Source of the DNA: an uncultured bacterium
GTDB lineage: Bacteria > Oederibacteriota > JAAXVQ01
Length of the DNA stretch: 64,000 nt
NCBI GenBank assembly: GCA_964604705.1
Contig: CAZSAP010000001.1
Span: 363,500 to 427,499 of the forward strand
Reading direction: 5' to 3'
Part shown: one piece after another, positions 3,382 through 39,493 of the stretch
Position numbering within the stretch: position 1 is the first letter of the stretch
Layout: the number at the start of each line of letters is the position of its first letter
The notes under the pieces: model-generated
Told to the model about the DNA's origin: nothing
What the model saw: only the letters and a program-made list of their open reading frames with translations
Database searches by the model: none
Program-made: the position numbers and the translations under genes

Positions 3382-3590
3382 ATAAAATTCGATGAATAAA
3401 ATATGGGTTTTTGGGCGATTCGTCAAGTATGTTTGAAACTTTTTCTCAGTGAGATAACTTCAGTATTTCAAGCCGAGTAATAATTAGTAGATGTACATTG
3501 TAATAAAACGGAATTATATTGCCTCTAACCAATATTGCAACCTTCTTTCGTCTGTGTCCAACTAATACTTCTATTGCTGAAAGGAATGAC

Positions 3591-4715
3591 ATGTCCTTTA
3601 AACTAAACCACTCCAGCCTATTTTGCTTAGCGCTACTGACCACGGCGCTGCTTGCATCTACTGCAACCTCAGGCGCCTTGGCTGCAGATAATGGAGGGGG
3701 TACAGGAAATACTTCACTAGCGCAAGCACTCCCTGCGACAAGACCGACCCCGGTTTCGGTGATCTTGCGCGACATAGCTATTACCAAAACCAGTGCACGC
3801 ACGGACTGGTTATGTGGAACGCTGGTCAACGAAAGCGAATCCTTTGTAGACACTGTGTTGGCTCGAATCGTGTACTGCGATAGTGAAGGAAACACCCTGG
3901 CCTATGAATACAAAAAACTTCTAGACTCCGCGGTGTTCACCTACCATGTGCCGCTCCAGCCCGGATACGCTCGTGAATTCAAAGTACCTTTAAAAAACGC
4001 ACCTAATTTATACAACGAAACTGTCGTGGACATCGCACGCGTAAAAAGCAAAGGATATGATGAATATTTTGTGCCCCTTGAGCCCAAGCTCGGCGCAGGT
4101 GTAGGCTGGGCCTACGGCAGCTGTGGAACCAACCTCGAATTGCTCATTGCCAATTTCTATGCTATCAGTCTAGGTGTAGGTAATGCTGCCTGGTTTGCGA
4201 CCGAACACTGGTCGGATGACGCTTCTGTCTACTCCTCTTCAACTATCACACTTCCTGTTTGCTACCTGCCGGGCACGCGCCTGTATATCGGTGATCCAGC
4301 CTCGTCTATACGCGGACGAATCGGATTCTTTTACGGTCCAACCCACTTATACGCAAAGCCCTACACTACCAAATATGAATGGATCATGGGATACCATCCC
4401 AGCCTTGGATTCCAATGGCGAATCTTCGAAAACGTGAGCTTGGACGTGGATGCGGAATGGGTGATTCCGCAGGAACACAGCAGAGACTACACCTACACAG
4501 AGACCCATACAGGTTGGGATTGGCACTACTGGCCGAACCCACCGCGCTCCTACACCTATACGGACAACCATACCCTACACACGGATTTTAAAAACTATTT
4601 CTCGCCATCGGTGGGCATCACCGTGCATTTTGGGGACCACGGAAAAATTTACGACGACATCAAGACTTCGCGTACCATTCACGTGCGCCAGTCAGAACCC
4701 TCAACCCAGCGCTGA
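3591..4715 (+). CDS. Hypothetical secreted protein (signal peptide; Trp/Tyr-rich C-terminal region)
   Basis: ATG at 3591 preceded by aaagga. N-terminus MSFKLNHSSLFCLALLTTALLASTATSGALA is signal-peptide-like. No motif recognised. Confidence 0.55.
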   Translation: MSFKLNHSSLFCLALLTTALLASTATSGALAADNGGGTGNTSLAQALPATRPTPVSVILRDIAITKTSARTDWLCGTLVNESESFVDTVLARIVYCDSEGNTLAYEYKKLLDSAVFTYHVPLQPGYAREFKVPLKNAPNLYNETVVDIARVKSKGYDEYFVPLEPKLGAGVGWAYGSCGTNLELLIANFYAISLGVGNAAWFATEHWSDDASVYSSSTITLPVCYLPGTRLYIGDPASSIRGRIGFFYGPTHLYAKPYTTKYEWIMGYHPSLGFQWRIFENVSLDVDAEWVIPQEHSRDYTYTETHTGWDWHYWPNPPRSYTYTDNHTLHTDFKNYFSPSVGITVHFGDHGKIYDDIKTSRTIHVRQSEPSTQR

Positions 4716-4745: not shown

Positions 4746-7421
4746 TTATCGCACCACCGCCACCTTGCTTTTCCCAATCTCTTTCCCGTCTTGCAAGACA
4801 CGCGCCACATAAATGCCTGGGGCGGTTGCGCGACAATTCCAAGCAACCAGGGTAATCTCGCCTTCGGCACCTTGGGCACTAAGCAGCGCCACGCGTTCGC
4901 CATGGACATTGTACAGCTGCACTTTCAGTTCCCCCGCCCCCTTACTCTGAATGGCAAAGGTCATTTGGTCGCGACCCGGATTGGGATATGCCAAAAATGC
5001 GCGTCCATGCAGATCTACGTTTATGCACGTGGGCGTGGTGGTGGTTGTCGGTGTCGTGGTGGCCGTGGCCGAGAGCGTCGGCGTCACGGTCACGGTGGGG
5101 GAAGGGGTCACGGTTTGCGTAATGGTGGGTGTCGCTGAAACGGTCGGGGTTACGGTCGGGGTCGGTGCCGGAACCAAGACATTCGCTGAAAACTCTGACG
5201 TGTTGCGCAGCGCATTCGTACTCAGTGCCGTAATCGATTCGCCGGGGTTCACGCCCGAAAAATTCAAAGTCCAGTTCGTACCCGTGGCTGTGGTGTTCCC
5301 CAGATACCGCAAACTACCACCGTTCAAGCCAGCGCTACGGCTCGCCGTAAAAAGTTCAATCGCATCTCCACTCTCACATGTCCCAGAAGCCTGATTCCAA
5401 ATCACCGAAGTGATTACCGGAGCAGACTTGTTTTGATTCCCACTGCTGTTTAAATTAATCCCTTTGAAGCTAAAGGCCGTGATGGTATTTCCCCACACAC
5501 CATTACCATCCACCGTCGCCCCTTCAATTCGAATTCCTGAAAATCCGCCTACAATCAAATTTCCAACGCCCGTATTTTTTAATCCCACATCATTTCCAAA
5601 AGCATTAGAGAGTAGGTGAATCCCAGATAAGCTCATGTTGGCGGTAGAGGGGCGACCGTCTGCGTGCACACCCATCCAATTGCCTACAATGGTGTTTCCG
5701 GTGCTATCCGTAATGATGATACCCGTGCCTTCGCCACAAATGATATTTTTCTCACTTGGCAATATCCCTCCAAACCGAGTGTACTGAGTGCGCGTCATCT
5801 GAACAACACTGTTTGTCCCATTGAGCACAGCAGGAATGGTATTTCCCGTGGCATCGGTCTGAAAATAATTGCCGCAAACCGTATGCCGAGTACCCATAAT
5901 AATCATGCCCGTTTGTGCACCATAAATCACATTGCGATACGCCGCCACCGCACCGCCGACCAGGGTTTGACTGGAATTCAGGTTTAAATAAATTCCGACA
6001 TTGTTGGTCATGGGAACCGTTCCCGTAGCATCCAGCCCAATCGTATTGCCGGTGATGGAATTGCCCGTCCCCGCATTGAGCATAATGCCAAAGGCTCCGT
6101 TCCCGGAAATGAGATTGCCATAGACATGGCTGCTATCTGTATTGGCTCCCCCAAATAAATTGCCATTTGAGCTAGAATATATACCGTAGTTAGAATTGGC
6201 CATAATGGCTGTTCCCGTGAGATTAACGCCAATTAAATTCCCGGCAATGGTGTTGCCACTGGCGCCAGAATCCATGCTAAAACCAAACCCGTTATTGCCA
6301 GAAATCACATTCCCTTCCAGTGCGCCCGGCGCGCGATTCCCCCCAATCAGGTTGGAACAAGCCGGACCCATGAGCAAGATACCCCGGTCATTGGGCATAG
6401 CCGTGTTTAGATCCGTCACACCAATGCGATTGTTTTGAACGCGGTTAAAATTAGCAGATGATCCGGCCTGAAACAAAATTCCAAGACCGTTTGATCCATT
6501 GCTATTCCCTGCGATGACGTTTCCAAATCCAGCCTGCGGCAAGCCGATATAATTCCCATCAGCCCAATTTCCCAGCACCACACCATAGTGATTTGGAAGT
6601 GCCGCTGTCTGTGTGATGTTTGGGCCCAAGAGGTTCCCACAGATAGTATTGCCTTGAGTCCCGGCTCCATTGAGGTAAACGGCCATAGACACATTTCCCG
6701 AAATGAGGTTACCCTCATCTAGCCCACTGCTGCCACGGTGCCCGCCAATCAAACATTGCGAGCTGCCGGACAAATACACGCCCGTGTTGTTGGCCATAGC
6801 TACCGTTCCTGTGGGGTCAGTGCCAATATAATTATTTTGAACGATCATGCGGGTTGAACTCAACGCATAAATGCCATAGTTGATATTTCCGGATATAACA
6901 TTGCCACCTGCAGGGGTTCCCACCACTACGTCTGATGCTGAATTTGTATAAACGCCGGTGTTGTTCCCTTTGCCTGTAGCGCCAGCCCAATTGGTGCCGA
7001 TGTGGCAGTTTTGAATGCGTACCGCGGTCTGGGCAACAATCGCTTGATTGCCGTCAATTAGTGCCACACCGTCGAGCACCGATCCTTCTGACCCTGGCAG
7101 GAAACCAATCAGATCTCTGCGCACAGCACCACTGCCAATCACCACTGTGCCACCGCCATTGATGGCGACTTGCTCTGAAACCGTGAGCGTGCTGCCAATC
7201 ACGGTAATGGAGTTGCCACCGGCGAGGGCAAACGTGATGTTGTGCGGGCCGGTGAGCGTATTGGCTTCATCCAGCGCGCCCCGCAAGGTGTTTATGGACC
7301 CACTCGGATCGACCACACTGGTTACGACATAGTCTTTGGAAAAGCACGGAACCGTCAGCAAACCTAGACCCACACCCATTATACAAAGCACACGATAAAA
7401 CCCAAACTTAGTCATCAACAT
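4746..7421 (-). CDS. Secreted parallel beta-helix repeat protein with Thr/Pro linker and T9SS-type C-terminal sorting domain (cargo paralog B)
   Basis: 891 aa. Signal peptide, then KDYVVTSVVDPSGSINTLRGALDEAN motif and many GN.I.GN beta-helix repeats. Linker [24 protein letters not shown]-terminal domain ends ...[30 protein letters not shown] lies 6 nt before the second in-frame ATG, so the true start may be at 7415. Confidence 0.8.
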   Translation of the reverse strand: MLMTKFGFYRVLCIMGVGLGLLTVPCFSKDYVVTSVVDPSGSINTLRGALDEANTLTGPHNITFALAGGNSITVIGSTLTVSEQVAINGGGTVVIGSGAVRRDLIGFLPGSEGSVLDGVALIDGNQAIVAQTAVRIQNCHIGTNWAGATGKGNNTGVYTNSASDVVVGTPAGGNVISGNINYGIYALSSTRMIVQNNYIGTDPTGTVAMANNTGVYLSGSSQCLIGGHRGSSGLDEGNLISGNVSMAVYLNGAGTQGNTICGNLLGPNITQTAALPNHYGVVLGNWADGNYIGLPQAGFGNVIAGNSNGSNGLGILFQAGSSANFNRVQNNRIGVTDLNTAMPNDRGILLMGPACSNLIGGNRAPGALEGNVISGNNGFGFSMDSGASGNTIAGNLIGVNLTGTAIMANSNYGIYSSSNGNLFGGANTDSSHVYGNLISGNGAFGIMLNAGTGNSITGNTIGLDATGTVPMTNNVGIYLNLNSSQTLVGGAVAAYRNVIYGAQTGMIIMGTRHTVCGNYFQTDATGNTIPAVLNGTNSVVQMTRTQYTRFGGILPSEKNIICGEGTGIIITDSTGNTIVGNWMGVHADGRPSTANMSLSGIHLLSNAFGNDVGLKNTGVGNLIVGGFSGIRIEGATVDGNGVWGNTITAFSFKGINLNSSGNQNKSAPVITSVIWNQASGTCESGDAIELFTASRSAGLNGGSLRYLGNTTATGTNWTLNFSGVNPGESITALSTNALRNTSEFSANVLVPAPTPTVTPTVSATPTITQTVTPSPTVTVTPTLSATATTTPTTTTTPTCINVDLHGRAFLAYPNPGRDQMTFAIQSKGAGELKVQLYNVHGERVALLSAQGAEGEITLVAWNCRATAPGIYVARVLQDGKEIGKSKVAVVR

Positions 7422-7494
7422 CCTCCGGTAAAAGTAACAATCATGCTAAACGTGAGTTCAATTCTGAACTTCTCGCTATTATTTCGTGTCCACG

Positions 7495-7573
7495 TTTGTC
7501 ATTTCGAGAGGCGTGAGCCTCGAGAAACCTTGTTTTAAAAGCGAGATCTCTCGCTTCACTCGAGATGACAAAC
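7495..7573 (-). promoter_or_regulatory. Conserved structured element (copy 1) upstream of cargo gene B
   Basis: On the minus strand, TTTGTCATCTCGAG...CTCGAAATGACAAA forms a 13-bp closing helix. It encloses the gcgaga-tc-tctcgc hairpin and the GAGGC-UCAC-GCCUC hairpin. It shares the 12-mer TTGTCATCTCGA and helix geometry with 9601..9671. Confidence 0.4.
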
Positions 7574-7658
7574 ATGGTTATCAATTCCAAGAGAACCGCT
7601 AGGCATGCCCTTACGGATTTTCTTTTGCATTTTTTATTCACTTTCCTTTTATAATTGT

Positions 7659-9578
7659 CTATCTCACCACTGCAACTTTGGTCTTACCAACTTCCTTGCC
7701 ATCGAGACTTATGCGCGCGATATATAGCCCGGGTGCCACGCTAGAGCAATCCCAGACAACCACCCCACGCCCCGCAGGCAACGAGTCTGTCACCACACCC
7801 ACCGGCTCCCCGTTTAAATTGGTCATTTGGATTTTCACCTGTACGGCCCGATCCGGATCTACCAAAAACTTCACCTGTTCGCGACCCGGGTTGGGGTACG
7901 CTAGGAAAAGTTTGCCGGTTAAATCTACGTCAGAAAAAGCATTGCGCGGTGTCGGGGTTAAAGTCATAGTTGGCATCACAGTTGGTGTGATCGTGGCCGA
8001 GGGTGAAACCGTGCTTGTCGGGGTTACCGTGGGTGTGCCGTAACGGCCGCCATCGGTGATGGTCCAGTGGCTGCCGCTGGTTAATATCGCGCGGTGCATT
8101 TCCGCTGCCACTGAGTTAAAACGGCTGTGCCCGCCGTCAAACACAACATTGGGTTGTACGCTCTGGTCGGCCCAGCCGGTGAGCAGCGCATCGTAGTTGG
8201 CACTTGTCAGTGTTATTCCGCTGAACATCCCGGAGGCAGACGTCAACGCCCCCACATTCCAACTTCCCAAATTCTGATTAAACGCCACTGCTCCGTTGAA
8301 CATGGTTAACATATACAAGACCTTGCTTGTGTCCCAGGCAGCGATATCCTGATTGAAGGCCACGGCATTGGAGAACATGCTCGACATGTTCGTCACCTTG
8401 CTTGTATTCCAGGCGGCGAGATTTTGATTGAACGCCGCAGCACCGAAAAACATGCTGCTCATGTTCGTTACATTCGCCGTGTCCCAAGTTCCAATCGGCT
8501 GGTTAAACGCACTCGCATTATAAAACATCGAGTCAAACCTTGTTACCGCCCCCGTGTTCCAACCTCCAATCGGCTGGTTGAACGCAGTGGCGCCGGAAAA
8601 CATCGTATTCATGTTCGTCGCATTCACGGTATTCCAAGTTCCAATGAGCTGGTTAAACGCTGTCGCGTTGCGAAACATCGAGTCAAACCTAGTGACCGCC
8701 CCTGTGTTCCAAGCCCCAATCGGCTGGTTGAACGCACTCGCACCATAAAACATCGTACTCATGTCGGTCACCTTCGCCGTGTTCCACCCTGAGATATTCT
8801 GATTGAAAGCCGCAGCGTTTTGGAACATTCTCTGCATACTCGTCACATTGGCTGTGTTCCATCCACTGATATTTTGGTTAAATGCGCTGGCACCGGAAAA
8901 CATGGACGTCATGTATTTAACTGCACCCGTATTCCAGGCTCCAATTGGCTGGTTGAATGCAGCAGCACCGGAAAACATGCTGCTCATATTTTCCACACTT
9001 GCAGTATTCCATCCGCTGATATCCTGATTAAATGCACTGGCATTAGAAAACATCCCTTGCATGTTTATCACATGGCTGGTATCCCACCCAGTCATACTCT
9101 GATTGAGTGAACTGGCGTTCCAAAACATATAGCCCATATAGGTAACATTGGATAAATTGGGCGCGTCACTGGCCGCAAGGGTCAGGTTGGAACAGCCGGC
9201 AAACGCATTGAACATGGTGATCCAGGCTCCGGTGCCCCATTGTTCTATCGTAAGCAGCTTTTGCCGGTCCCCGTCGCCGTTAAAATATATTTGCGGGAAC
9301 GTATTGCGAATTCGCACGGTGTAAGTGCCGGGCGTTGCATAGACGCACGTGGTGTTTCCAGTAATGCCGGTGTATTCCCAGGTATCCAACCCCTGCAAAT
9401 CCACGTCGTAATTGTACCCACTGCCTGCGGTCGGGATGGTGAATTGGTTGGAAGCCGAGGACCCGGGGTTGTCGGTCTTCACCGTGATGATGAAGTAATC
9501 CGTGGTTGCAGCCTGAGTTGCAGCAGCAAGCAAGAGCCCCGCAAGACTTAAAAACAATTTCCTAAAAACATTTTTCAT
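7659..9578 (-). CDS. Secreted DUF285/BspA-type repeat protein with Thr/Pro linker and T9SS-type C-terminal sorting domain (cargo C)
   Basis: 639 aa. Signal peptide MKNVFRKLFLSLAGLLLAAATQA, then about 12 tandem ~22-aa repeats of the form SMF..A.AFNQ.I..WNT..VT.M. Linker TPTVTPTSTVSPSATITPT. The C-terminal domain is ~93% identical to that of gene D. Confidence 0.8.
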   Translation of the reverse strand: MKNVFRKLFLSLAGLLLAAATQAATTDYFIITVKTDNPGSSASNQFTIPTAGSGYNYDVDLQGLDTWEYTGITGNTTCVYATPGTYTVRIRNTFPQIYFNGDGDRQKLLTIEQWGTGAWITMFNAFAGCSNLTLAASDAPNLSNVTYMGYMFWNASSLNQSMTGWDTSHVINMQGMFSNASAFNQDISGWNTASVENMSSMFSGAAAFNQPIGAWNTGAVKYMTSMFSGASAFNQNISGWNTANVTSMQRMFQNAAAFNQNISGWNTAKVTDMSTMFYGASAFNQPIGAWNTGAVTRFDSMFRNATAFNQLIGTWNTVNATNMNTMFSGATAFNQPIGGWNTGAVTRFDSMFYNASAFNQPIGTWDTANVTNMSSMFFGAAAFNQNLAAWNTSKVTNMSSMFSNAVAFNQDIAAWDTSKVLYMLTMFNGAVAFNQNLGSWNVGALTSASGMFSGITLTSANYDALLTGWADQSVQPNVVFDGGHSRFNSVAAEMHRAILTSGSHWTITDGGRYGTPTVTPTSTVSPSATITPTVMPTMTLTPTPRNAFSDVDLTGKLFLAYPNPGREQVKFLVDPDRAVQVKIQMTNLNGEPVGVVTDSLPAGRGVVVWDCSSVAPGLYIARISLDGKEVGKTKVAVVR

Positions 9579-9600
9579 TTACATGCTCCTTATAATTGAC

Positions 9601-9671
9601 TGCCATGTCGAACAAAGTGAGAAATCTTGTTTGTCAAAGACAGCTCTCTCACCAGCGTTCGAGATGACAAC
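9601..9671 (-). promoter_or_regulatory. Conserved structured element (copy 2) upstream of cargo gene C
   Basis: On the minus strand, GTTGTCATCTCGAAC...GTTCGACATGGCAG forms a 13-bp closing helix with the bulge at the same position as copy 1. It has compensatory differences (GAG/CUC becomes AAC/GUU) and an internal GUGAGA...UCUCAC helix. Confidence 0.4.
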
Positions 9672-9708
9672 TCATTTTTTAAAAAACAACATAGCTGATA
9701 TTTTATCA

Positions 9709-9740
9709 TCGTAGGGGCGACCCGGTGGTCGCCCCTACGA
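9709..9740. terminator. Perfect 14-bp stem hairpin between cargo genes D and C
   Basis: tcgtaggggcgacc-cggt-ggtcgcccctacga, followed on the plus strand by attttcttttgtaattttt. On the minus strand it lies 57 nt after the D stop codon. Confidence 0.5.
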
Positions 9741-9796
9741 ATTTTCTTTTGTAATTTTTAATCACTTTCCATTTTCAATTTTCAATTCTCGATTTT

Positions 9797-11665
9797 CTAT
9801 TTAACCACCGCAACTTTACTCTTCCCAACCTCTTTGCCATCCAACAGAATACGTGCGATGTAAAGTCCGGGTGCCACGCTAGAGCAATCCCAGACAACCA
9901 CCCCACGCCCCGCAGGCAGTGAGTCTGTGACCACACCCACCCGCTCCCCGTTTAAATTGGTCATTTGGATTTTCACCTGTACGGCCCGATCCGGGTTCAG
10001 GAGAAACTTCACCTGCTCGCGCCCCGGGTTAGGATACGCTAGGAAAAGCTTACCCGTTAAATCGACGTCCTCCAAAGCACTGCGCGGTGTTGCGGTTAAG
10101 GTCGCGGCGGCTGCACCCGAGGTGGGTGTCGGAGTGGCTGTGGGTGTGCTGGTATGGGTCAGTGTCGCTGTCAAGGTAGGTGTAACTGTAGGCGAAGCTG
10201 TGCTTGTAGGTGTGACTGTACTTGTGGGCGTATACGCCAAGCTGCAGCCCATGGTGTTTGAGTGCCAGGTCTGGTACACACCGTTGCGGGCGCGTACGCG
10301 GTAATAATACGTCCCTTGACTGGTCAACCCCGTGACCGACCACGAGGTAGCGTTCCCCACCAGGCTATTTCCCCAGCCGCTGACCAGATTGATAAACATG
10401 TTATCCGTAGCCACGTCCAGGGCATAATCCGTGGCGCCAGCAACGGATTGCCAGTTGGCGGTAAACGCGGTTGGGCTTTGCACAGTAGGCGCCAGCGCCA
10501 CAGGCAAGGTGCCGTTATATTCCACGCTGCCTTTGTCTGCCGTGTTCACCCGCAGAAACCCGCGCGCATCCACAAAGGGTACACTTCCGCCGGTGACTGG
10601 ATCGACGGCGAAGCTGCTGCTTGCAGGCAAACATGTCTGCACATACCCGCCGTAATCAGCCAACGGTGCTAAATTCGCAGGCACCTTGCTCGCTTCCGTG
10701 CCCACCACGTCTCCGGAGGTCCAGGTGTACGTATATGCCCCAGTAGAACCCACCAGATTATTTCCCAAAGACGTAAAGACTCCGCTAATTAATAAAATGT
10801 CGGAATTGCCTCCGGTTTGCACTTGATTGCCAGCCACGATGCAAGATTGCATACTGGTTGTACACGTATCGAAAGCAATCCCCCCAATACCATTGGTCGT
10901 GTTGTTGCCGGTAATGGTACAGTGATTCATCGTCGCTGTACTAATCCCGAAAAGAATGGCGCCGTTACTCTGCGAGTTATTTCCATAGATCGTAACATTG
11001 CTGCAGATGATGCTCCCCATGCTTGTACAGATCGCGCCGTTATTTTGAGCAGAATTATTGCTGATCAAAGAATTGTAAAGCTCTGTTTGCGCATTGTAGG
11101 CAAACAGACCTCCTCCAGAGGTGTTCGAACTGCCACTTCGCGTGGCGTTGTTGTTTACCACCTGGCAGCGGTTTAGGGTCAACGTGCCTTGGTCATTGTA
11201 AATACCGGCCCCCGAAGCACTCACAATGCTGGCCACCGCGTTGTTATTGGCCACGCTACACTGATCCAGTGAAAGCGCCGCACCTGAGTTGATGCGGATG
11301 CCCGCGCCATTGCTGTCTGTGATTTTGCCATTGCAAACCGTCATTCCTGAAAGTACGCTCGCGCCCGAAGTAACATCGAATACCCGGAACAAATTGCCGC
11401 CACTCACATAGAGCCTGGATACACCAGGACCCACGATGGTCAAACTTTTGTTGATCGTCAGCGTGGACCCTAAGGTAATGGTAGCGCCGGCGGGTAGGTT
11501 AAAATCGATGGTTCCTCCGTTCGCAGAATCCGCTATGGCCTGACGCAATGTCCCAGCGCCGGAATTCGCATTGCTGGTAACCGTAATGGTCGCCGCCTGG
11601 GTAGAGACCACCGACAACACCCACACCCCTAAAAACCATCCTAATCCCACATGTCGCTTAATCAC
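9797..11665 (-). CDS. Secreted CSLREA-motif beta-helix protein with FN3-like domain, Thr/Pro linker and T9SS-type C-terminal domain (cargo D; tandem duplicate of E)
   Basis: 622 aa with a GTG start preceded by AAAAGGAG and a 6-nt spacer. The N-terminal ~90 aa are almost identical to E ([31 protein letters not shown]). Motif YALDVATDNMF...YYYRVRARNG is FN3-like. C-terminus ends ...KVAVVK. Confidence 0.8.
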   Translation of the reverse strand: MIKRHVGLGWFLGVWVLSVVSTQAATITVTSNANSGAGTLRQAIADSANGGTIDFNLPAGATITLGSTLTINKSLTIVGPGVSRLYVSGGNLFRVFDVTSGASVLSGMTVCNGKITDSNGAGIRINSGAALSLDQCSVANNNAVASIVSASGAGIYNDQGTLTLNRCQVVNNNATRSGSSNTSGGGLFAYNAQTELYNSLISNNSAQNNGAICTSMGSIICSNVTIYGNNSQSNGAILFGISTATMNHCTITGNNTTNGIGGIAFDTCTTSMQSCIVAGNQVQTGGNSDILLISGVFTSLGNNLVGSTGAYTYTWTSGDVVGTEASKVPANLAPLADYGGYVQTCLPASSSFAVDPVTGGSVPFVDARGFLRVNTADKGSVEYNGTLPVALAPTVQSPTAFTANWQSVAGATDYALDVATDNMFINLVSGWGNSLVGNATSWSVTGLTSQGTYYYRVRARNGVYQTWHSNTMGCSLAYTPTSTVTPTSTASPTVTPTLTATLTHTSTPTATPTPTSGAAAATLTATPRSALEDVDLTGKLFLAYPNPGREQVKFLLNPDRAVQVKIQMTNLNGERVGVVTDSLPAGRGVVVWDCSSVAPGLYIARILLDGKEVGKSKVAVVK

Positions 11666-11725
11666 TCGCTACTCCTTTTGGCTATGCCGATTTTCTATTC
11701 TCTTTTTTCTATTGTCTTTTAATGT

Positions 11726-13630
11726 CTAGCGTACGACCGCCACCTTGCTCTTCCCGATCTCTTTGCCGTCCATGGAGATGCGAGCCAGATAAAGTCCGGG
11801 TGCCACGCTACGGCAATCCCAGGTTATTGTCCCTTTGCCGGCTGGAATGTCACCCATAACCACGGCTACCTGTTCCCCATTTAGATTGAATAAAACAATT
11901 TGAATCTGCACCGCATGCTCTGGGTTAAACATAAACCGAATCTGCTCGCGCCCCGGGTTAGGATACGCTAGGAAAAGCTTACCCGTTAAATCGACGTCTT
12001 CCAAAGCACTGCGCGGTGTTGCGGTTAAGGTCGCGGTTGGCACCGGGGTCTGTGTGCTCGTAAACGTCGCAGCGGCTGCACCTGAGGTGGGTGTTGGAGT
12101 TGCTGAGGGTGTACAGGTTTGGGTCAGTATCGCGGTCAATGTCGATGTAACTGTAGGCGTCGCCGTGCTTGTGGGTGTCACGGTGCTCGTAGGCGTGTAG
12201 GCTAGGCTGCATCCCGTCGTGTTCGAGTGCCAGGTCTGGTACGCACCGTTGCGGGCGCGAACGCGGTAATAATACGTCCCTTGACTGGTCAACCCCGTGA
12301 CTGACCACGAGGTGGCATTGCCCACCAGGCTATTGCCCCAGCCACTGACCAGATTGATGAACATATTATCCGTGGCCACGTCCAGAGCATAATCCGTGGC
12401 CCCAGTCACCGCCTGCCAGTTGGCCGTAAACGCGGTTGGGTTTTGCACCGTGGCAGGTAGAGCCACGGGTAATGTGCCGTTGTATTCCACGCTGCCTTTG
12501 TCCGCGGTGTTCACCCGCAGAAACCCGCGCGCATCCACAAAGGGTACACTTCCACCGGTGACTGGATCGACGGCCAAACTACTGCTCGCGGGCATGCATG
12601 TCTGCACATACCCGCCGTAATCAGCCAACGGTGCTAAATTCGCAGGCACCTTGCTCGTTTCCGAGCCCACCACGTCTCCGGTGGTCCAGGTGTATGTATT
12701 TGCCCCAGTAGAACCCACCAAATTGTTTCCCAAGGACGTGAATGTTCCGTCAAAAAAAATGTCGGAATTGGCACCGGACTGCACTAGATTGCCGGCCACA
12801 CTGCAAGACTGCAGGGTGGTTGTGCAATTAAAGCAAGCAATTCCCCCAACACCATTTGCCGTATTGTTGCAAGTAATGGTGCTATGATCCAAGGTCACTG
12901 TGCTGCCCGCGCAATACACGGGGCTGTTAGTCTGCGAATTATTTCCGTAGATCGTGACATTGCTGAAGGTTAATGTCCCCGAATAACCATTAATCGCACC
13001 GCCAATTCGGGCAGAATTATTGATGATCGTAGAATTGTAAAGCGCTGTTTGCGCAAAATATGCAGACAGTCCTCCCCCAAACGTATTCGGACCGGAAGTG
13101 GTGCGCGTGACGTTGTTGTTCGCCACCTGGCAGCGGTTTAGGGTCAGCGTGCCTTGGTCATTATAAATGCCACCTGCTTCAGCGTCCATACCGCTGGCAA
13201 CCGTGTTGTTATTGGCAATCGTGCACTGGTCCAGGGAAAGCGCCGCGCCTGAATTGATACGGATGCCTGCACCATTGGTGTCAGTGACCTTGCCATTGCA
13301 CACTGTCATTCCGGAAATAAAGCTCGTACCCGAAGTAACGTCGAACACCCGGTACAAATCGTTTCCACTCACATAGAGCCTGGACACACCTGGGCCCACG
13401 ATCGTCAAACTTTTGTTGATGGTCAGTGTGGACCCTAAGGTAATGGTAGCGCCGGCGGGTAGGTTAAAATCGATGGTTCCTCCGTTCGCAGAATCCGCTA
13501 TGGCCTGACGCAATGTCCCAGCGCCGGAATTCGCATTGCTGGTAACCGTAATGGTGGCCGCCTGGGTAGAGACCACCGACAACACCCACACCCCTAAAAA
13601 CCACCCTAATCCCGCATGTCGCTTATTCAC
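11726..13630 (-). CDS. Secreted CSLREA-motif beta-helix protein with FN3-like domain, Thr/Pro linker and T9SS-type C-terminal domain (cargo E)
   Basis: 634 aa with a GTG start. The same AAAAGGAGTAGCGA-GTG upstream context as D. The C-terminal domain has diverged from D's. Confidence 0.8.
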   Translation of the reverse strand: MNKRHAGLGWFLGVWVLSVVSTQAATITVTSNANSGAGTLRQAIADSANGGTIDFNLPAGATITLGSTLTINKSLTIVGPGVSRLYVSGNDLYRVFDVTSGTSFISGMTVCNGKVTDTNGAGIRINSGAALSLDQCTIANNNTVASGMDAEAGGIYNDQGTLTLNRCQVANNNVTRTTSGPNTFGGGLSAYFAQTALYNSTIINNSARIGGAINGYSGTLTFSNVTIYGNNSQTNSPVYCAGSTVTLDHSTITCNNTANGVGGIACFNCTTTLQSCSVAGNLVQSGANSDIFFDGTFTSLGNNLVGSTGANTYTWTTGDVVGSETSKVPANLAPLADYGGYVQTCMPASSSLAVDPVTGGSVPFVDARGFLRVNTADKGSVEYNGTLPVALPATVQNPTAFTANWQAVTGATDYALDVATDNMFINLVSGWGNSLVGNATSWSVTGLTSQGTYYYRVRARNGAYQTWHSNTTGCSLAYTPTSTVTPTSTATPTVTSTLTAILTQTCTPSATPTPTSGAAAATFTSTQTPVPTATLTATPRSALEDVDLTGKLFLAYPNPGREQIRFMFNPEHAVQIQIVLFNLNGEQVAVVMGDIPAGKGTITWDCRSVAPGLYLARISMDGKEIGKSKVAVVR

Positions 13631-13681
13631 TCGCTACTCCTTTTGGCTACGCCGATTTTCTATTCTCTATTTTCTATTGTT

Positions 13682-15850
13682 CTAGCGAACAACCGCCACC
13701 TTACTCTTCCCAATCTCTTTCCCATCTTGCAGCACGCGCACCAGATACAAGCCTGGTGCAACTGTGGTACAGTTCCATATCACGCTGTTAACATTATCTC
13801 CCGTGACTTGAGCGCTTAAGGTGGCCACGCGTTCGCCGCTCATGTTGTATATCTGAATCTTCGCCTCACCCTCGCCTGTGGGCTGAAACGCCAAGGTTAT
13901 CTTGCCTTTACCCGGATTCGGATACGCCACAAGGGTTTTGCCTTTCAGATCAAGTCCACTGCGTTCCAAGGTCGCTGTCAGCGTGGGCGTGTTGGTGGGC
14001 GTCAGCGTTACAGTTGACGTAAGGGTAATGGTCGCCGAAACCGTCTGCGTGGCGGAGATCGTCGAAGTCGCTGAAATGGTCGGGGTAGATGTGAAGGTCA
14101 TCGTGGGCAAGACCGGCGAAACAGTCGAGCTGGGTGTCGCGGTCGGTGTGACCGAGGCCGTGGCCGACTGGGTCCGAGTAGGTGTGGCCGTAGAGGTCGG
14201 AGTGGCCGTAACCGAGGGTGTGGCCGTAGTGCTCGACGAGGGCGAGGTGGCCGTGGCGGTCGGTGTGGCCGTTATGGTCGCAGTCCGCGTGGCCGTATAG
14301 GTAGATGTGCTCGTGCGTGTCGGTGTGGAGGTACGGGTAGGGGTTTGTGTAATCGTGGGCGTAGCCGTAGGTGTATAGGTTACCGTTGACGTCAACGTCG
14401 GAGTCGCCGTGGTGGTGGGCGGCGTTCCGGTGGTTAAGCAAGAAATCGTGTTGGAGTGATAGGTCTGTTCCGTTCCATTGAGGGCGCGCACCCGGTAGTA
14501 ATAGGTCGTGCCGGAAAGTAAACCGGTCACGCTCCATGAGGTGGCATTGCCTACCAGACTGTTCCCCCAGCCACTGACCGGGCTGGTAAATCCACTGTCT
14601 CTGGCCACGTCCAAGGCATACCCTTGCGCGCCGATGACCGCGTTCCAGTTGGCCGTGAAGCCGTTGTCCCCCGTGCCCGTTGCCGCTGTGGCTACTGGCA
14701 GCGTGCCGCTGTATTCTGCCGAGCCCTTGTCCGCAGTGTTTACGCGGAGGTATCCGCGGGCATCCACCCACGAGGCGCTGCTGCTGGCTGGGTCAATGGT
14801 GGAACTACCAACGTTGGGCAGACACACGGGGACATACCCACCGTTGTCCGCGAGACTACCCAGCTGGGCATCCTGTGGGCTGCCCGAAGTACCGATTAGG
14901 TCACTGGCGTCCCAGGTGTAGAGATACGTTGCATTCCTGATCCCCACGATATTATTTCCCAGAGACGTGAGACTGCAGGACATAAATAAAGTGTCTTCGT
15001 TCCAACCGCCACCATTGAGGTGCAGATTTTGAGCCACCACTGTATTCTGGAGGAAAAGCATCGAACCAATCATGACCATTTCCGTCGAGTCGGCCCGGTT
15101 CCCGGTGATGGTGCAATTGATCGCCGCCAAGGTACACGACGAGTAGCCCAGCAAAGAACCGTATCCAGTGGCTGTATTGTTGGAGGCTGTTACATTGACC
15201 AGCGTAGCGGAACTGCCCGATTGGGCAATCCCCGACCCCCAAGACCCGGCATTCTCGGAGATAGTGCTGTTGTATACATACAAGGGGCCGGTGCTGTAAA
15301 TGGCACCGCCATAGGAATTGCCCGAACTAAACGGAATAGCATTGCTCCGTACCGTACAATGGTTCAAGGTCAATGTCCCACCCCGGTTGGCAATACCGCC
15401 TCCACATATCCCTGAAACCAGATCCACCGCGCGATTGTATTGGATCGAGCACTGTTCCAATGTCAGCGTGGCTGCACTGCTCATATAAATACCTGCACCG
15501 CCGTTGGTTGTGTCCGTGGTCCGCCCATGGGCAATGGCGAGTCCGACAAGGGTATTACTGCCACCGGTAACCGCCAAAACACGTACTGTGTCCTGCCCGC
15601 TGAGAATGAGCTGCGTTGCCCCCGGTCCGACCACGGTCACACTCTTGGTCAAGGCCAGTGTCGAACTCAGGTTAATGGTGGCAGGATATGAAAGACTAAA
15701 GGTAATGACATCACCATTGCTCGCATCAGCCAACGCTTGCCGCAGCGTGCCCGCCCCGCTGTCCGCCGAACTGGTAACCGTGATGGTGACCGCCTGGGCC
15801 GATGCTGTTAAATACAATCCCAAACTCAGACTTACCAGAATACGTTTCAT
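13682..15850 (-). CDS. Secreted CSLREA-motif beta-helix protein with long Thr/Pro/Ser linker and T9SS-type C-terminal domain (cargo F)
   Basis: 722 aa. Signal peptide [20 protein letters not shown], then [27 protein letters not shown] ~130-aa T/P/S linker follows. C-terminus ...[25 protein letters not shown]. Confidence 0.8.
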
Positions 15851-15954
15851 GATTACTCGCCTTTGTGTGAATTTCCCTGCAGAAGGGTGCCAGAGACGGC
15901 AGAGATCTTACCAAATCAACCTTCAGGGTACAACCTTTTGGTTCAATGACAATT

Positions 15955-15997
15955 GTAAAAAAAAAAACGCCCTTTTTGGAAATCCCAACGGGGCGTT
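15955..15997 (-). terminator. Rho-independent terminator downstream of cargo gene G
   Basis: aacgccc (15966-72) pairs with gggcgtt (15991-97). On the minus strand it is followed by an 11-T run (rc of the a-run at 15950-15965). Confidence 0.6.
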
Positions 15998-16081
15998 TTC
16001 CGAACGTTAAAACACTAGGCCGACCGCCGGTCGCCTCTACGTTTTTTTAAACTTCACTTTCCATTTTCGATTCTCGATTTT

Positions 16082-18202
16082 CTATCTTACCACCGCGACT
16101 TTGGTCTTCCCAATCTCTTTCCCATCCTGCACAACGCGCACCATGTACAAGCCCGGTGCGATGGACCCACAGTTCCATATCACACTGGCTGTGGTTTCAC
16201 CGCTTACCTGCGCGTTTAAGGTTGCCACACGTTCGCCGCTCATGTTGTATATCTGTATCTTCGCCTCGCCATTACTTGTAGGCAAAAAGGCGATGGTGAT
16301 TTTTTCTTTACCTGGATTGGGATACGCTAAAAGTTTTTTACCAAAAAGATTTAAGCTTGATCGCTCAGGTGATGCTGTGGGCGTGGGGGTCACAGTTGAA
16401 GTCGTTGTGGTAGTAGCAGTCTGAGTAATGGTTGCCGATACTGTGAGTGTGGGCGTGACTGTAGCAGTTATTGTGTGCGTAGCGGAATGAGTGTAGGTCG
16501 CTGACACAGTCAGCGTGGGCGTAACGGTTGCTGAGGCTGTGGCTGTAGGCGTACCCGTAGGTGTCATGGTCGTGGTACTGGTACGCGTGGCGGTTGGACT
16601 TGAGGTCCGGGTTGGTGTAGCAGTAGGCGTGGCCGTGGCACTGGGCGTGGGTGTGAATGTTGGCGTCACGACCATGACATTGGTCGAATAACACGATGTG
16701 CCATACTGGGATTGATTCGTGGAGAGCGCACACACATTGTTCCCAGCAGAAAGCCCGCCTGCCACATTTACCGCCCAGGTATAAGGCCCGGTTCCACTAC
16801 TTGAGGTGGTGTATCCAAGTAACCTCAATGCACCGCCTTGATCGCCCCCAGTGCGATTGGCTTCTGCTGCATACACTTCCACATACTCTCCAGGATAATA
16901 CGACGTCCCCTCCACCCGAGTCGGTTGTGCAAGCGTGATCACCGGACGCATGGATGAAGGACGGATATTTTCATTATAGACATAGGGGTTGGTGTTGCTG
17001 CCCGCAAACCCGCATTGCGTGTTGCCGTAAAACTGATACAACCCCGTGCTCGGCGGTGCATACAATTGGGTGTTGTAAAGCAAATTGCCCACACCGCCGT
17101 TGGGTGTTCCGATGATGTTGCCGGTCGTGGTATTGTAAAAAGTAATATAACTAAAATCGCCAATCCCTTGTGTCCCGGCTACGTTGGTGCCAAAGCAATT
17201 GCCAACAACTGTATTACTGCTCGCTCCCGTATAAAAAATGACATGAGTCATATTGCCGGTAAATATATTTTTATCAAGCACCGGGTTGCTTCCGCCCACC
17301 AAATTCCCGGTTCCCTTGTCGAAAACAACGCCGTATTGGAACGGATGGATACCATTCGTACTGCTGATGCCTATCAAATTGTTTTGGATATAATTGTTGT
17401 TGCTGGGGTTGTAGCCCCCGATTCGAATGGCAGTTCCACCAGTGTTGTCCGAGTGGCCAAAAACATTACCCCACCCAGAGAGCGCAATACCCACCCGGTT
17501 GTTCCCGGTTCCGTCCACCATAAGATCAGCGCTAGCCATGCTAAACGTGCCATTGTTGATGGCAACAGACTGGTCAGAACTTAATCCGAATATATTTCCC
17601 GCAATCACATGATTGCTTCCATAGGCCATTACACCATAATTGGAATTGCCTGAAATGACATTACCCTCGCCTGCCAAGCGATCGCCGCCAATGAAAATGC
17701 GGTTGCCATTACCAATGTTGATTCCAATATAATTGCCCTGCCCACTGGAGTTATTCCAATCGGTTCCAATGGCGCAACGCATGATGCGGACATCACTTAC
17801 TTCATTTTCGATATCTATGGCATATAAAGAATGCACCAAGGCCATACCCGTCAGCGTGCTGCCCGAAGAATCATAACCTCCAGATCCAGTGTATTTGTCC
17901 ATGAAAAATATCGCAACGCTCGAAGCGCTGCGGGAGCCTATGGTTACTCCATTGCCTTCAATAATGACTGTATTTGTAATGACGATTTGGCTATAAACCG
18001 TGATGGAGTTGGGCACCTGGCAGACAATGGTCTGCACGCCCGTGGTGGTGTTCGAGGCGGCAATGGCCTGACGCAATGTTCCTGGACCGCTGTTTTCCCG
18101 GCTGGTGACCACGAACGTCTCTCCCCAGGCAGCCTGAGTACATATCAACAGTACGAGCATGGCAATCCAACTCAAATTCATTTTCGCCTTCATCATCTTC
18201 AA
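16082..18202 (-). CDS. Secreted CSLREA-motif beta-helix protein with Thr/Pro linker and T9SS-type C-terminal domain (cargo G; paralog of the edge gene at 1..1728)
   Basis: 706 aa. MNLSWIAMLVLLICTQAAWGETFVVTSRENSGPGTLRQAIAASNTTTGVQTI. C-terminus ...[59 protein letters not shown]. Confidence 0.8.
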   Translation of the reverse strand: MKMMKAKMNLSWIAMLVLLICTQAAWGETFVVTSRENSGPGTLRQAIAASNTTTGVQTIVCQVPNSITVYSQIVITNTVIIEGNGVTIGSRSASSVAIFFMDKYTGSGGYDSSGSTLTGMALVHSLYAIDIENEVSDVRIMRCAIGTDWNNSSGQGNYIGINIGNGNRIFIGGDRLAGEGNVISGNSNYGVMAYGSNHVIAGNIFGLSSDQSVAINNGTFSMASADLMVDGTGNNRVGIALSGWGNVFGHSDNTGGTAIRIGGYNPSNNNYIQNNLIGISSTNGIHPFQYGVVFDKGTGNLVGGSNPVLDKNIFTGNMTHVIFYTGASSNTVVGNCFGTNVAGTQGIGDFSYITFYNTTTGNIIGTPNGGVGNLLYNTQLYAPPSTGLYQFYGNTQCGFAGSNTNPYVYNENIRPSSMRPVITLAQPTRVEGTSYYPGEYVEVYAAEANRTGGDQGGALRLLGYTTSSSGTGPYTWAVNVAGGLSAGNNVCALSTNQSQYGTSCYSTNVMVVTPTFTPTPSATATPTATPTRTSSPTATRTSTTTMTPTGTPTATASATVTPTLTVSATYTHSATHTITATVTPTLTVSATITQTATTTTTSTVTPTPTASPERSSLNLFGKKLLAYPNPGKEKITIAFLPTSNGEAKIQIYNMSGERVATLNAQVSGETTASVIWNCGSIAPGLYMVRVVQDGKEIGKTKVAVVR

Positions 18203-18378: not shown

Positions 18379-18397
18379 AATTCACTAACTTTACGGT

Positions 18398-36553: not shown

Positions 36554-39493
36554 ATGTTTCACTTCGTACATAAAATCCTGCGTCTGTTTTCCCTTTTATG
36601 TCTGCTCGTCTTCACATCCGCCGTATCTCAGGCGACGACTTATACGGTCACCTCCGATGCCGACAGCGGCGCCGGTTCCTTACGTGATCAGTTGACCTTG
36701 GCCAACACCAACCCCGGAGCGGATATCATTGATTTTTCCGGTCCCATGTACATTACCGTAACCAGCGGGGCCTTGGCCGTCACCGACCGGGTCCGCCTCG
36801 ACGGCGGTGGCCAGGTGGTGCTTGCCAGTAACGGAAGCCTCATTGCACTGCGTCTGGTGGGAAGCAGCCAAGGCAGCACGATTACCGGCATGGCGTTTGT
36901 CAAGGCCACGGCCATGTACACGCCGGCGTTGGAAATCGCCACCAACAACAACCGTCTTTACGGCTGCCGCATCGGCACCGACTGGAACGACTCCCCAGGC
37001 TTGGGCAGCTATTATGGCTGCAGCGTCTATGGGTCGTTCAATGACATCGGCGGCTCCACTCCGGCCGAACGCAATGTTTTTGCGAACAACAGCATTGGCC
37101 TGCAAACCATGAACACCTGGTGTTGCCGCGTTCGCGGGAATTATTTCGGCCTAAATTCCTCAGGCACAGGTGCCCTGGCCAACATCTATGGGATTGTCGC
37201 CGATTACAATACCCGAGCAACATTGTTTGGAGGCGATCGCCTGGCCGGTGAGGGCAACGTGATAAGCGGCAACAGCGCCTACGGTGTTTATATGGACTCC
37301 ACGGCGTTTGGAAACACACTGTGCGGAAACATTGTTGGACTTACACCTGCCATGGACGCCCGCATAGCCAACCAGTTCGGCATTAGCGTCTACGGAGCCC
37401 GGGGCAACGCCTTCGGTTTGCCGGGCAGCGGTTATGAAAACATTATTTGCGGGAGCTCGGCAAATGGGTTGGAGCTCACGGGAAATGTAGGTTCCGAACC
37501 CGTTCCGCGCTACAACACCATCCGCAACAACTATATCGGTATCACCCCCAACGGAACCGTTTTCGCCAACGATCGCGGAATCTATTTAAACCACGTGGAA
37601 TACACCCTGATCGGAGGCGATTACCTGCTGCAACAGGGCAACCTTATCTCCGGCAATTACAACGAGGGGATTTACTTGTGCGACGGCAACAACAATTCCG
37701 TATGCGGCAATTCCATTGGCACCGATCCTACGGGCAACAACAGCGTACCCAATTCCTACGGGATCTATCTGGGCGGAGGCAGCGGCAACATCCTGGGCAA
37801 CACCTCCACCGGCAGCAGCGTGCTCGGCAACTTAATCTCAGGCAACAATTATCATGGTATATATCTGGATAAATACGTTTTCTCAGCGCCGTTGGTCAAC
37901 AACAGCATAGCCGGCAACCTCATAGGCATCAACCTGGCCAACAACGCGGCCCTGCCCAACGGACGTTCGGGCATCTATGTCAACAATGCAAGTTTTACCC
38001 GTATCGGTGGTCCGGGTGGAGATTTGCAAAACACCATTGCCGGCAATACCCATTACGGCATTGCCGTGGCCAACAGTTCGGATACAACCATCCAAAGCAA
38101 CTACCTTGGAACCGACACTACCGGCACACTGCAAATCAGCAACCAGTTAAACGCAATTCAAATCTCATCGTCCCCACGCACCTTGATCGGCGGCGTGGGC
38201 GGCAACCTCGGGAATCTCATTTGCGGTACCGGAGCCGCAGGCGTGGCCGGCATTTCCCTCAACAACAGCAGCGGCAACACCCTTGCAGGCAATGCCATCG
38301 GCGTGCTTTCCACGGGCGTTCCGGCCTCGCCCAGTTTTACCCATGCTGTTTTTCTGACCAACACCTGCACCGACTCCCTGATCGGCCAACCCACAGGCGG
38401 CCTCGGCAACCTGATGGCCGGCACCACGTACGGCATCACCCTTGGCAACCATACCTGCATTCGAAACTCGTTTTACTCCAACACCGTTTGTGCCTTCGGC
38501 ACCCAGGGTATCCAACTGCTCAGCGGAGCCAATGCCAGTAAAACCGCACCTGTGATTTCCACGGTCGGATTAAGCCTCGCGCAAGGCACGTCCGGCGCCA
38601 ACGACCACATCCAATTGTTCCTCTCCGATCGTGGCGCTGGGGTCAACGGAGGCAGCTTGCGCCTGGTGGGTGAAGGCTCGGCAGACGGCAGCGGCAATTG
38701 GTCCATTGGCGTTTCGGGCCTTCAATACGGCGACTATGTTTCAGCCCTAGCCACGAATGCATCCGGCAGCACTTCCGGCTTTAGCCTGAATTCGGTGGTC
38801 GCCTTGCCTCCGTCTCCCACGCCAAGCCGGACAACCACTTCCACAACCACCCCCACCCCCACGCTCACGGCGACGGTCACACCAACGCCCACAGCCTCCG
38901 CCAGTGCCTCTCCGTCTCCCACAGAAACCCTTACGGCCACAGCCACACCTACGGGCACAGCATCCCCCACGATCACCCCAACCCAAACCCCAACGTCCAC
39001 AGCGACCTTGACCCCAACCATTACCACCACCTACACGGTTTCCTGCACAGCCACGCCCACAAGCACCGTAACCTTCACCTGCACTCCCTCCTCCACCTTC
39101 ACGATCACCCTTACGCTCCCGCCAAGTTTCACGGCCACACATACAACAACACCTTATCCGACTGAAACGGCAACCCCTACGTCTTCCCTCACACCCACCA
39201 TCACCTCCACGCTCACGGCGCAAACTGTAGTACTCTCTCCCTGGGTAGGTACTGCTTTCCCCAATCCCGCACGAGGGCAAGTTAAATTTATTTTACCCGC
39301 GGCCTTGGCCAGCGAAATAACGGTTTACAATCTTTCCGGCGAGCGGATTGCAAGCGTGCGTGAAAACCAAGCTTATACCGAACCCCATATCATCGTCTGG
39401 GATTGTACCGGCATAGCCCCAGGCATCTATGTGGCTGAAGTGAAGGTGGATGGAAAATGCGTCAAACGCATTAAATTTGCATTAGTCAAATAG
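36554..39493 (+). CDS. Secreted CSLREA-motif beta-helix protein with long Thr/Pro linker and T9SS-type C-terminal domain (cargo H; the only plus-strand member)
   Basis: 979 aa. MFHFVHKILRLFSLLCLLVFTSAVSQATTYTVTSDADSGAGSLRDQLTLAN. More than 25 GN..G beta-helix turns. A ~180-aa T/P/S linker. C-terminus ...GIAPGIYVAEVKVDGKCVKRIKFALVK. Confidence 0.8.
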   Translation: MFHFVHKILRLFSLLCLLVFTSAVSQATTYTVTSDADSGAGSLRDQLTLANTNPGADIIDFSGPMYITVTSGALAVTDRVRLDGGGQVVLASNGSLIALRLVGSSQGSTITGMAFVKATAMYTPALEIATNNNRLYGCRIGTDWNDSPGLGSYYGCSVYGSFNDIGGSTPAERNVFANNSIGLQTMNTWCCRVRGNYFGLNSSGTGALANIYGIVADYNTRATLFGGDRLAGEGNVISGNSAYGVYMDSTAFGNTLCGNIVGLTPAMDARIANQFGISVYGARGNAFGLPGSGYENIICGSSANGLELTGNVGSEPVPRYNTIRNNYIGITPNGTVFANDRGIYLNHVEYTLIGGDYLLQQGNLISGNYNEGIYLCDGNNNSVCGNSIGTDPTGNNSVPNSYGIYLGGGSGNILGNTSTGSSVLGNLISGNNYHGIYLDKYVFSAPLVNNSIAGNLIGINLANNAALPNGRSGIYVNNASFTRIGGPGGDLQNTIAGNTHYGIAVANSSDTTIQSNYLGTDTTGTLQISNQLNAIQISSSPRTLIGGVGGNLGNLICGTGAAGVAGISLNNSSGNTLAGNAIGVLSTGVPASPSFTHAVFLTNTCTDSLIGQPTGGLGNLMAGTTYGITLGNHTCIRNSFYSNTVCAFGTQGIQLLSGANASKTAPVISTVGLSLAQGTSGANDHIQLFLSDRGAGVNGGSLRLVGEGSADGSGNWSIGVSGLQYGDYVSALATNASGSTSGFSLNSVVALPPSPTPSRTTTSTTTPTPTLTATVTPTPTASASASPSPTETLTATATPTGTASPTITPTQTPTSTATLTPTITTTYTVSCTATPTSTVTFTCTPSSTFTITLTLPPSFTATHTTTPYPTETATPTSSLTPTITSTLTAQTVVLSPWVGTAFPNPARGQVKFILPAALASEITVYNLSGERIASVRENQAYTEPHIIVWDCTGIAPGIYVAEVKVDGKCVKRIKFALVK

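Follow-up and report, generated by a model that had tools for sequence, protein, structure and literature searches.

A short gene-conversion tract as the probable source of a shared patch in the sorting domains of two adjacent cargo genes

How do two neighboring genes with unrelated passengers come to end in almost the same C-terminal domain? The question is raised by genes C and D, which adjoin each other in an array of six same-strand genes within the window (i.e., the whole 64-kb stretch of DNA that was analyzed). In each array gene, a signal peptide is followed by a passenger, a Pro/Thr linker, and, at the end, a T9SS type A C-terminal sorting domain (CTD). The passenger of C is unrelated to the others (0 BLASTP hits against any other passenger), and C and D have only the C-terminal signal domain in common. 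The original prediction spoke of eight paralogs; the CTD-bearing genes in the window number seven, and no RNA families were found there by an Rfam search. The seven genes are as follows.

Gene B, 4746..7421, minus strand: NosD-like beta-helix with a CTD of the B/F/G class.
Gene C, 7659..9578, minus strand: signal peptide, DUF285/PARCEL repeats, 30-aa PT linker, and T9SS type A CTD; 639 aa (Pfam matches PF03382, 434 bits, and PF18962, 26 bits).
Gene D, 9797..11665, minus strand: signal peptide, beta-helix with a choice-of-anchor Q domain, fn3, 50-aa PT linker, and T9SS type A CTD; 622 aa.
Gene E, 11726..13630, minus strand: tandem paralogue of D (passengers 82% identical in amino acids) with a different, E-type CTD core.
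Gene F, 13682..15850, minus strand: D/E-like passenger (48-49% identity); CTD 79% identical to that of G.
Gene G, 16082..18202, minus strand: NosD-like beta-helix and CTD.
Gene H, 36554..39493, plus strand: lies apart from the array and completes the seven; its CTD is the most divergent.

By profile scores and a structural model, the CTDs belong to the T9SS type A sorting domain family; their export and cleavage are only predicted. All six TIGR04183 scores exceed the cutoff of 23 bits (C 28.5, D 31.5, E 36.3, F 39.1, G 40.8, and H 30.9), and PF18962 scores range from 26 to 41 bits against a cutoff of 27, with C slightly under the cutoff and B at 28.1. The HMM matches stop 2-6 residues short of the stop codon, which places the CTD at the extreme C-terminus, while hydrophobic N-termini with A-x-A-like sites, read directly from the sequence, are the predicted signal peptides. 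The AF2 model of the D CTD contains seven strands (pLDDT 89.8), and its Foldseek matches include the CTD of PorU (6za2; TMq 0.66, rmsd 3.2), although with weak E-values of about 2e-3. The structure of the RgpB CTD is likewise a seven-strand Ig-like beta-sandwich (de Diego et al. 2016, PMC4804311). In location, scores, and fold the domains thus resemble the known family; the difference lies in the host, which falls outside the characterized Bacteroidota, and in the machinery, since a scan of ten large ORFs of the window outside the array revealed no SprA/Sov, PorV, PorU, or PorK-N.

The C-terminal parts of C and D are identical at 79 of 85 residues (92.9%), in agreement with the predicted value of about 93%, and the 50-nt string quoted as an exact match occurs just twice, at 7731 and 9869; there are two exact runs of 52 nt each (7729/9867 and 7805/9943). 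The C-D pair is the most similar CTD pair in the window (92% in amino acids and 86% in nucleotides), followed by F-G (79 and 77%), C-E and D-E (66 and 64-68%), and the remaining pairs (33-63% in amino acids), so its identity is higher than that of the other pairs. The predicted 250 bp or so of near-identical DNA was, however, an overstatement: over 240-300 nt the nucleotide identity is 85-86%. The similarity is concentrated in an internal segment, and the region can be divided into three zones.

Zone 1 of D, 10013..10093, minus strand: from the pre-CTD segment to YPNPGREQ; differs by one base from 11942-12022 in E (D-E dS 0.05).
Zone 2 of C, 7731..7874, minus strand: the putatively converted tract, 48 codons from VKF to VAP, with a clean core at 7731-7853.
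Zone 2 of D, 9869..10012, minus strand: the matching tract, with its core at 9869-9991; encodes CTD beta-strands 2-5 in the AF2 model.
Zone 3 of D, 9800..9868, minus strand: the last 23 codons, strands 6-7, equivalent to 7662-7730 in C; no recent exchange.

Across the 144 nt of zone 2, C and D differ at 10 positions (93.1% identity, dS 0.19), and across its 123-nt core at only four (96.7%, dS 0.10). Synonymous divergence is far higher on both sides: the C-D dS is 0.74 in the 27 codons directly upstream (zone 1), while in zone 3 the synonymous sites are saturated in all comparisons among C, D, and E (pS 0.78-0.98; C-D 0.79). Adjacent segments also favor different relationships. All 15 informative sites of zone 1 unite D with E, 49 of 51 in zone 2 unite D with C, and those of zone 3 are mixed; the breakpoints are significant (max-chi-square permutation, p <= 2e-4 for the order of the sites), so chance is excluded. 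The differences cluster near the 5' edge of zone 2, with six in 9 nt at about 9995-10003 of D, and the 5' boundary of the tract is therefore either 10012 or 9991.

Short-tract ectopic gene conversion between C and D explains this patch best, with a probability of roughly 0.8. Some 125-145 bp inside the CTD coding region would have been copied recently from one gene to the other by non-reciprocal homologous recombination between copies 2138 bp apart. On either side the tract is bounded by DNA for conserved CTD motifs (AYPNPGREQ on the upstream and WDC..VAPG on the downstream side), and such motif-coding stretches, alike across the family members, may act as homology anchors. As the patch corresponds to strands 2-5 of the seven-strand beta-sandwich, the event would be a homogenization within the domain rather than a replacement of the whole domain; the pre-CTD/YPNPG segment and the last two strands were left unconverted. 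Of the two processes originally proposed, gene conversion between neighboring cargo genes is thus supported by the low-dS tract and its significant breakpoints, whereas cassette exchange of sorting domains does not fit a tract lying inside the domain. In characterized T9SS the CTD signal is cleaved off after export, and for this reason the change is probably close to neutral.

A recent exchange of the entire CTD between C and D, with or without the 3' flank, would account for the high protein identity throughout the 85 residues and for a similarity that runs about 70 nt past the stop codon. The flanks concerned are the following.

D 3' flank, 9709..9796, minus strand: A/G-rich motif followed by a GC-rich palindrome.
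Flanks similar to that of D, minus strand: 16007-16081 after G and 7584-7658 after C.

The flank of D is at least as similar to that of G (87%) as to that of C (83%), so the likeness extends beyond the C-D pair, and an extension of the tract into the flank was ruled out. CTD classes do cross passenger classes (F groups with G and B, and C with D and E), which indicates that whole domains were shuffled sometime in the past. This older shuffling across passenger families is real and ancient: the F-G CTD likeness was considered as a second recent event and discarded on its dS of 1.13. Between C and D, the old flanking parts of the CTD confine the young portion to the internal 123-144 bp, and a whole-domain exchange is accordingly improbable.

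Selection alone, purifying or convergent, might also keep the two secretion signals alike without any recombination, as the CTD works as a signal and carries conserved motifs, and the last 23 codons retain 87% protein identity despite saturated synonymous sites. Selection on the protein, however, leaves synonymous sites free, and those of the core stand at a dS of 0.10 against at least 0.74 in the flanks and 1.4-1.5 in comparison with E (1.5 for D-E over the zone 2 codons), with an abrupt switch between zones. The synonymous pattern refutes selection for zone 2, and as a general account it is very improbable; it remains the explanation of zone 3. The donor of the tract to C, D, or both could instead have been a third CTD gene from another part of the genome, considering that the source contig, of which 64 kb were examined, measures 523 kb or more and that an exhaustive representative search found this CTD type on many different passenger types in relatives (with no closer relative among them). 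Such a donor is unlikely: no third copy of the tract occurs in the 64-kb window, the flanks and the core of D are both of the type found on D-like genes in L014 and L015, which fits a native D tract, and physical proximity favors C and D as exchange partners. Finally, the patch might be a chimeric consensus across repeats, as the source appears to be an assembly from an uncultured organism whose nearest named relatives are metagenome-assembled genomes (MAGs). An artefact is nevertheless scarcely credible, given that the copies differ at those 10 of 144 positions, the flanks are unique and in-frame, the exact runs reach just 52 nt, and a repeat-mediated join would delete or rearrange the intervening 2.1 kb rather than yield an in-frame patch.

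Gene conversion between C and D does not by itself produce the contrast between the CTDs of D and E; tracts exchanged between these two paralogues contribute as well. D and E are old duplicates (dS about 0.5-0.9), and, as predicted, E diverges in the CTD core yet matches D just upstream, with one mismatch in 81 nt. This near-identity of zone 1 points to a D-E conversion tract that abuts the C-D tract. A further tract is located at the opposite end of the genes.

5' D-E conversion tract, 11486..11710, minus strand: codons 1-60 and roughly 45 nt of the leader before them; the equivalent in E is at about 13451-13675.

Within it, identity reaches 93-100% in 60-nt windows and dS, which is 0.5-0.9 in the body of the gene, drops to 0-0.09; the leaders of D and E are 96% identical. 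Over the same background, low D-E dS recurs at codons 1-60, 302-331, and 512-541. At least three D-E tracts in the array suggest that patchy concerted evolution is the general regime at this locus. Both E-type and D-type CTD cores are found on D/E-like passengers in other organisms.

Given the event, D was somewhat more probably the donor and C the recipient, a tentative assignment drawn from short segments of a handful of distant relatives. The zone 2 core of C and D matches L014 and L015 at 30-32 of 41 residues and P0005 and P0006 at 26-29 of 41, all on beta-helix/fn3 passengers, and the DUF285 orthologues P0140, P0166, and P0213 at only 17-21 of 41. At the edge of the patch, C retains FLV like the DUF285 orthologues, whereas D has FLLNPDR like L014. 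The opposite direction was considered on the assumption that E, like P0003, preserves the ancestral CTD of the D/E pair (the E-type core is 69% identical to the core of P0003, an outgroup homologue); L014 and L015 together with the DUF285 orthologues reversed it.

No sister-strain genome was found: a search of genome contigs with D returned only distant fn3 matches, and a metagenome search with the D CTD gave a single distant match. A word-indexed search with the CTD alone recovered seven fragments only, of which the P0248 and P0250 contigs were informative. In relatives whose glutamine synthetase is at least 90% identical, the array is absent at the glutamine synthetase position. In an FCPU426 MAG, the CTD of the C orthologue is just about 37-48% identical to nearby CTDs, which indicates that adjacency alone does not homogenize these domains.

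Comparable exchanges are known from Porphyromonas gingivalis, whose T9SS cargo genes rgpA, kgp, and hagA have modules in common, among them a conserved CTD of about 80 aa, and in which homologous recombination and gene conversion have been invoked for mosaic surface proteins (Dashper et al. 2017, PMC5266723). The present array resembles these genes in being composed of paralogous T9SS cargo genes with shared modules and probable gene conversion. In P. gingivalis, a cultured pathogen of the Bacteroidota, however, it is entire adhesin modules and alleles that move between strains, whereas here a sub-domain CTD patch of about 125-145 bp would have passed between neighboring genes whose passengers are unrelated, and the lineage is an uncultured one with relatives among FCPU426/Firestonebacteria MAGs. 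In bacteria generally, tandem paralogues evolve in concert via short-tract ectopic gene conversion, and the locus shows its usual traits: low-dS tracts of tens to hundreds of bp in older duplicates, breakpoints in conserved sequence, and several tracts per gene pair. Nothing essential differs; the only particularity is that donor and recipient share just the C-terminal signal domain. The event is a new example of an already known process, with no new mechanism or system. Silent cassettes of the pilE/pilS type and shufflons likewise involve copying between repeated segments of genes for surface or secreted proteins, but silent cassettes are lacking here: all copies in the array are full-length ORFs with their own signal peptides and in the same orientation. 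No recombinase was found among the window proteins scanned, and nothing suggests a programmed cassette or shufflon system. As the exchanged part is the signal that characterized T9SS remove, the exposed surface would not vary, unlike in those systems.

It is conceivable, if rather improbable, that the two CTD classes of the array, C/D/E-type and B/F/G-type, route cargo to different fates (e.g., anchored versus released). In that case selection might favor conversion between neighbors, either because it redirects cargo or because it keeps cargo signals co-adapted with a T9SS-like translocon, and this in a candidate phylum that lies outside the characterized Bacteroidota. The case illustrates, for a poorly known lineage, how concerted evolution can act patchily on a tandem cargo array, and it shows at nucleotide resolution that short tracts can homogenize part of the secretion-signal domain in otherwise unrelated cargo genes. 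Because one CTD can mix several histories, CTD phylogenies and a CTD-based classification of cargo can mislead.

Seven genes, B to H, encode proteins ending in a C-terminal sorting domain (CTD) of about 80-95 aa, preceded in 7/7 by a Pro/Thr-rich linker of 30-161 aa. The original prediction had counted eight paralogues, whereas scanning the window with HMMs in all six frames finds seven:

4746-18202, minus strand: six-gene array (B, C, D, E, F, and G)
36554-39493, plus strand: seventh CTD gene (H)

Judged by profile scores, these CTDs match the type A sorting domain of the T9SS (TIGR04183, 28.5-40.8 bits for C to H at a cutoff of 23 bits; PF18962, 26-41 bits at a cutoff of 27 bits, with C slightly under it). 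The AlphaFold model of the last 97 residues of D (pLDDT 89.8) contains seven β-strands, as does the solved structure of the RgpB CTD (PMC4804311); compared with solved structures, it resembles the PorU CTD (TMq 0.66, with weak E-values). The window ORFs scanned include no T9SS machinery gene, and T9SS secretion of the array proteins is putative, as suggested by the CTD. The Pro/Thr linker is shortest in C (30 aa) and longest in F (161 aa). An A/G-rich motif (TAGAAAATCGAGAATYGAAAAT..GGAAAGTGA) lies immediately after the stops of D (9709-9796), G (16007-16081), and C (7584-7658) on the minus strand, followed in D and G by a GC-rich palindrome (in D, a 14-bp stem at 9709-9740). The motif 21-mer is confined to these flanks within the 64 kb (0 expected by chance), the flanks have no Rfam match, and a similar post-stop motif occurs in an unrelated metagenome contig (L014, about 590-647).

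The likeness of the C and D CTDs is real and non-random, and its young part spans about 125-145 bp. As predicted (~93%), the two proteins are identical at 79 of the 85 C-terminal residues (92.9%), and C-D is the most similar of the CTD pairs compared (92% aa / 86% nt), ahead of F-G (79% aa / 77% nt) and the remaining pairs (≤66% aa). The predicted ~250 bp of near-identical DNA proved too long, as C-D identity is just 85-86% over 240-300 nt and non-uniform; the 50-mer quoted in its support occurs only at 7731 and 9869, and two exact C-D runs measure 52 nt each. For comparison, the last 98 codons of C, D, and E (a tandem paralogue of D) were split into three zones, all on the minus strand:

Zone 1, D 10093-10013, C 7955-7875: 27 codons, pre-CTD to YPNPGREQ; D-E one base different (dS 0.05), C-D dS 0.74
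Zone 2, D 10012-9869, C 7874-7731: 48 codons, VKF..VAP; C-D 93.1% identical (dS 0.19), D-E dS 1.5
Zone 2 core, D 9991-9869, C 7853-7731: 41 codons; C-D 4 differences in 123 nt (dS 0.10)
Zone 3, D 9868-9800, C 7730-7662: 23 codons, GLY.. to stop; synonymous sites saturated in all three pairs (pS 0.78-0.98)

Taken in order, the first 15 informative sites all group D with E, 49 of the next 51 group D with C, and those thereafter are mixed (max-chi-square permutation test, p ≤ 2e-4).

D and E themselves are old duplicates rather than recent ones, with dS 0.5-0.9 across most of the gene; a linker indel of ~12 codons separates them. Their dS drops at D codons 302-331 (0.14), at codons 512-541 (0.18, zone 1 included), and in a 5' tract:

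11486-11710 (D) and about 13451-13675 (E), minus strand: codons 1-60 plus leader; dS 0-0.09, leaders 96% identical

By these three drops, D and E carry several short tracts of mutual conversion and have been patched repeatedly. The abrupt switch at D 10013/10012 is the junction of a D-E tract and the C-D tract.

Protein-level selection cannot produce synonymous-site identity inside sharp boundaries; a recent copying event leaves this signature, and zone 2 bears it. Selection as the only cause is thereby refuted for zone 2, while it explains zone 3. A recent swap of the whole domain as a cassette is contradicted by the old flanks of the tract. The similarity after the stops extends beyond the C-D pair (flanks D-G 87%, C-D 83% identical), and an unrelated contig has the same A/G-rich motif directly after a stop codon. 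Nor is there any indication of a programmed cassette system: every CTD copy is a full gene, all are on one strand, and none of the window proteins scanned is a recombinase. An assembly chimera is unlikely, given that 10 of 144 sites differ between the copies, that exact runs reach just 52 nt, and that each copy is in frame with unique flanks.

Of the two processes originally proposed, the sharp low-dS tract supports gene conversion, and cassette exchange is disfavored by the old flanks. We infer a short-tract, non-reciprocal recombination between copies 2138 bp apart. On the D model, the tract covers strands 2-5, inside the domain, leaving out strand 1 (YPNP motif) and strands 6-7 (GLY...KVAVV). 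Its upstream edge (..CCTAGCGTAYCCNAACCCGGG..) and downstream edge (..TGGGATTGC..AGCGTGGCACCCGG..) lie in DNA that encodes conserved motifs and hence hardly differs among C, D, and E; these stretches probably supplied the homology for recombination.

Donation from C to D was the first reading, because P0003, which is the closest full-length homologue of D/E elsewhere, has a core more like that of E (69% identity) than that of D (49%); E and the P0003 contig also have DNA stretches in common. Further relatives reversed it. Two short metagenome contigs (L014, L015) carry D/E-like fn3-linker sequences that are nearer to D/E than those of P0003, followed by a CTD of the C/D type. The zone 2 core of C/D matches them at 30-32 of 41 residues and P0005 and P0006 at 26-29, all four CTDs being on beta-helix/fn3 passengers, vs only 17-21 of 41 for the three C orthologues with DUF285 passengers (P0140, P0166, P0213). 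At the 5' patch edge, C reads FLV, like the DUF285 orthologues, and D reads FLLNPDR, like L014. Core matches and edge residues favor the view that the sequence is native to D and that C received a clean tract of ~123 bp (a probability of about 60%, from the few relatives sampled); a donor elsewhere in the genome is conceivable.

Three unrelated passenger groups occur in the array and H: DUF285/PARCEL repeats in C, a beta-helix with choice-of-anchor Q domain and fn3 in D, E, and F (D-E 82%, D/E-F 48-49% identical), and NosD-like beta-helices in B, G, and H. In C, at least eight head-to-tail PARCEL/DUF285 units of 75 nt (25 aa) lie within 8350-9099, with mutual identity of 61-81%. CTD classes and passenger classes do not coincide: the CTD of C falls in one group with the D and E CTDs, and F combines a D/E-like passenger with a CTD that shares 79% identity with that of its neighbour G, whose passenger is NosD-like (13682-18202). 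The F-G CTD dS of 1.13 makes this shuffling ancient, not recent. In an exhaustive representative search, this CTD type was found on many passenger types in many metagenomes. Gene adjacency by itself does not homogenise CTDs; the C orthologue of a related MAG has a CTD with only ~37-48% identity to those nearby.

The nearest named relatives of the array proteins are in MAGs labelled candidate division FCPU426 and Candidatus Firestonebacteria; a 52%-identical orthologue of C comes from an FCPU426 MAG, which carries two reverse-transcriptase (RVT_1) genes within a few kb of it (L009, 1441-4832). Relatives with a glutamine synthetase at least 90% identical are without the array beside that gene, and the array is therefore a variable region. 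In two contigs of relatives (L005, L007; window 16082-19819), the regulator/AmtB side is syntenic and the CTD array downstream is missing; in L007, its position is taken by three Collar-domain (PF07484) genes and one 742-aa CTD protein. An ORF of 398 aa (3519-4715, plus strand) adjoins the array, convergent with B; no Pfam-independent NCBIfam model matches it.

Gene conversion over short tracts occurs generally among tandem paralogues. For paralogous T9SS cargo genes, recombination has been documented in Porphyromonas gingivalis, among its gingipain and haemagglutinin genes (PMC5266723). Particular here is a sub-domain patch within a signal domain, in an uncultured lineage, exchanged by genes that share nothing else. 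The C-D patch is a fresh example of an already known process.
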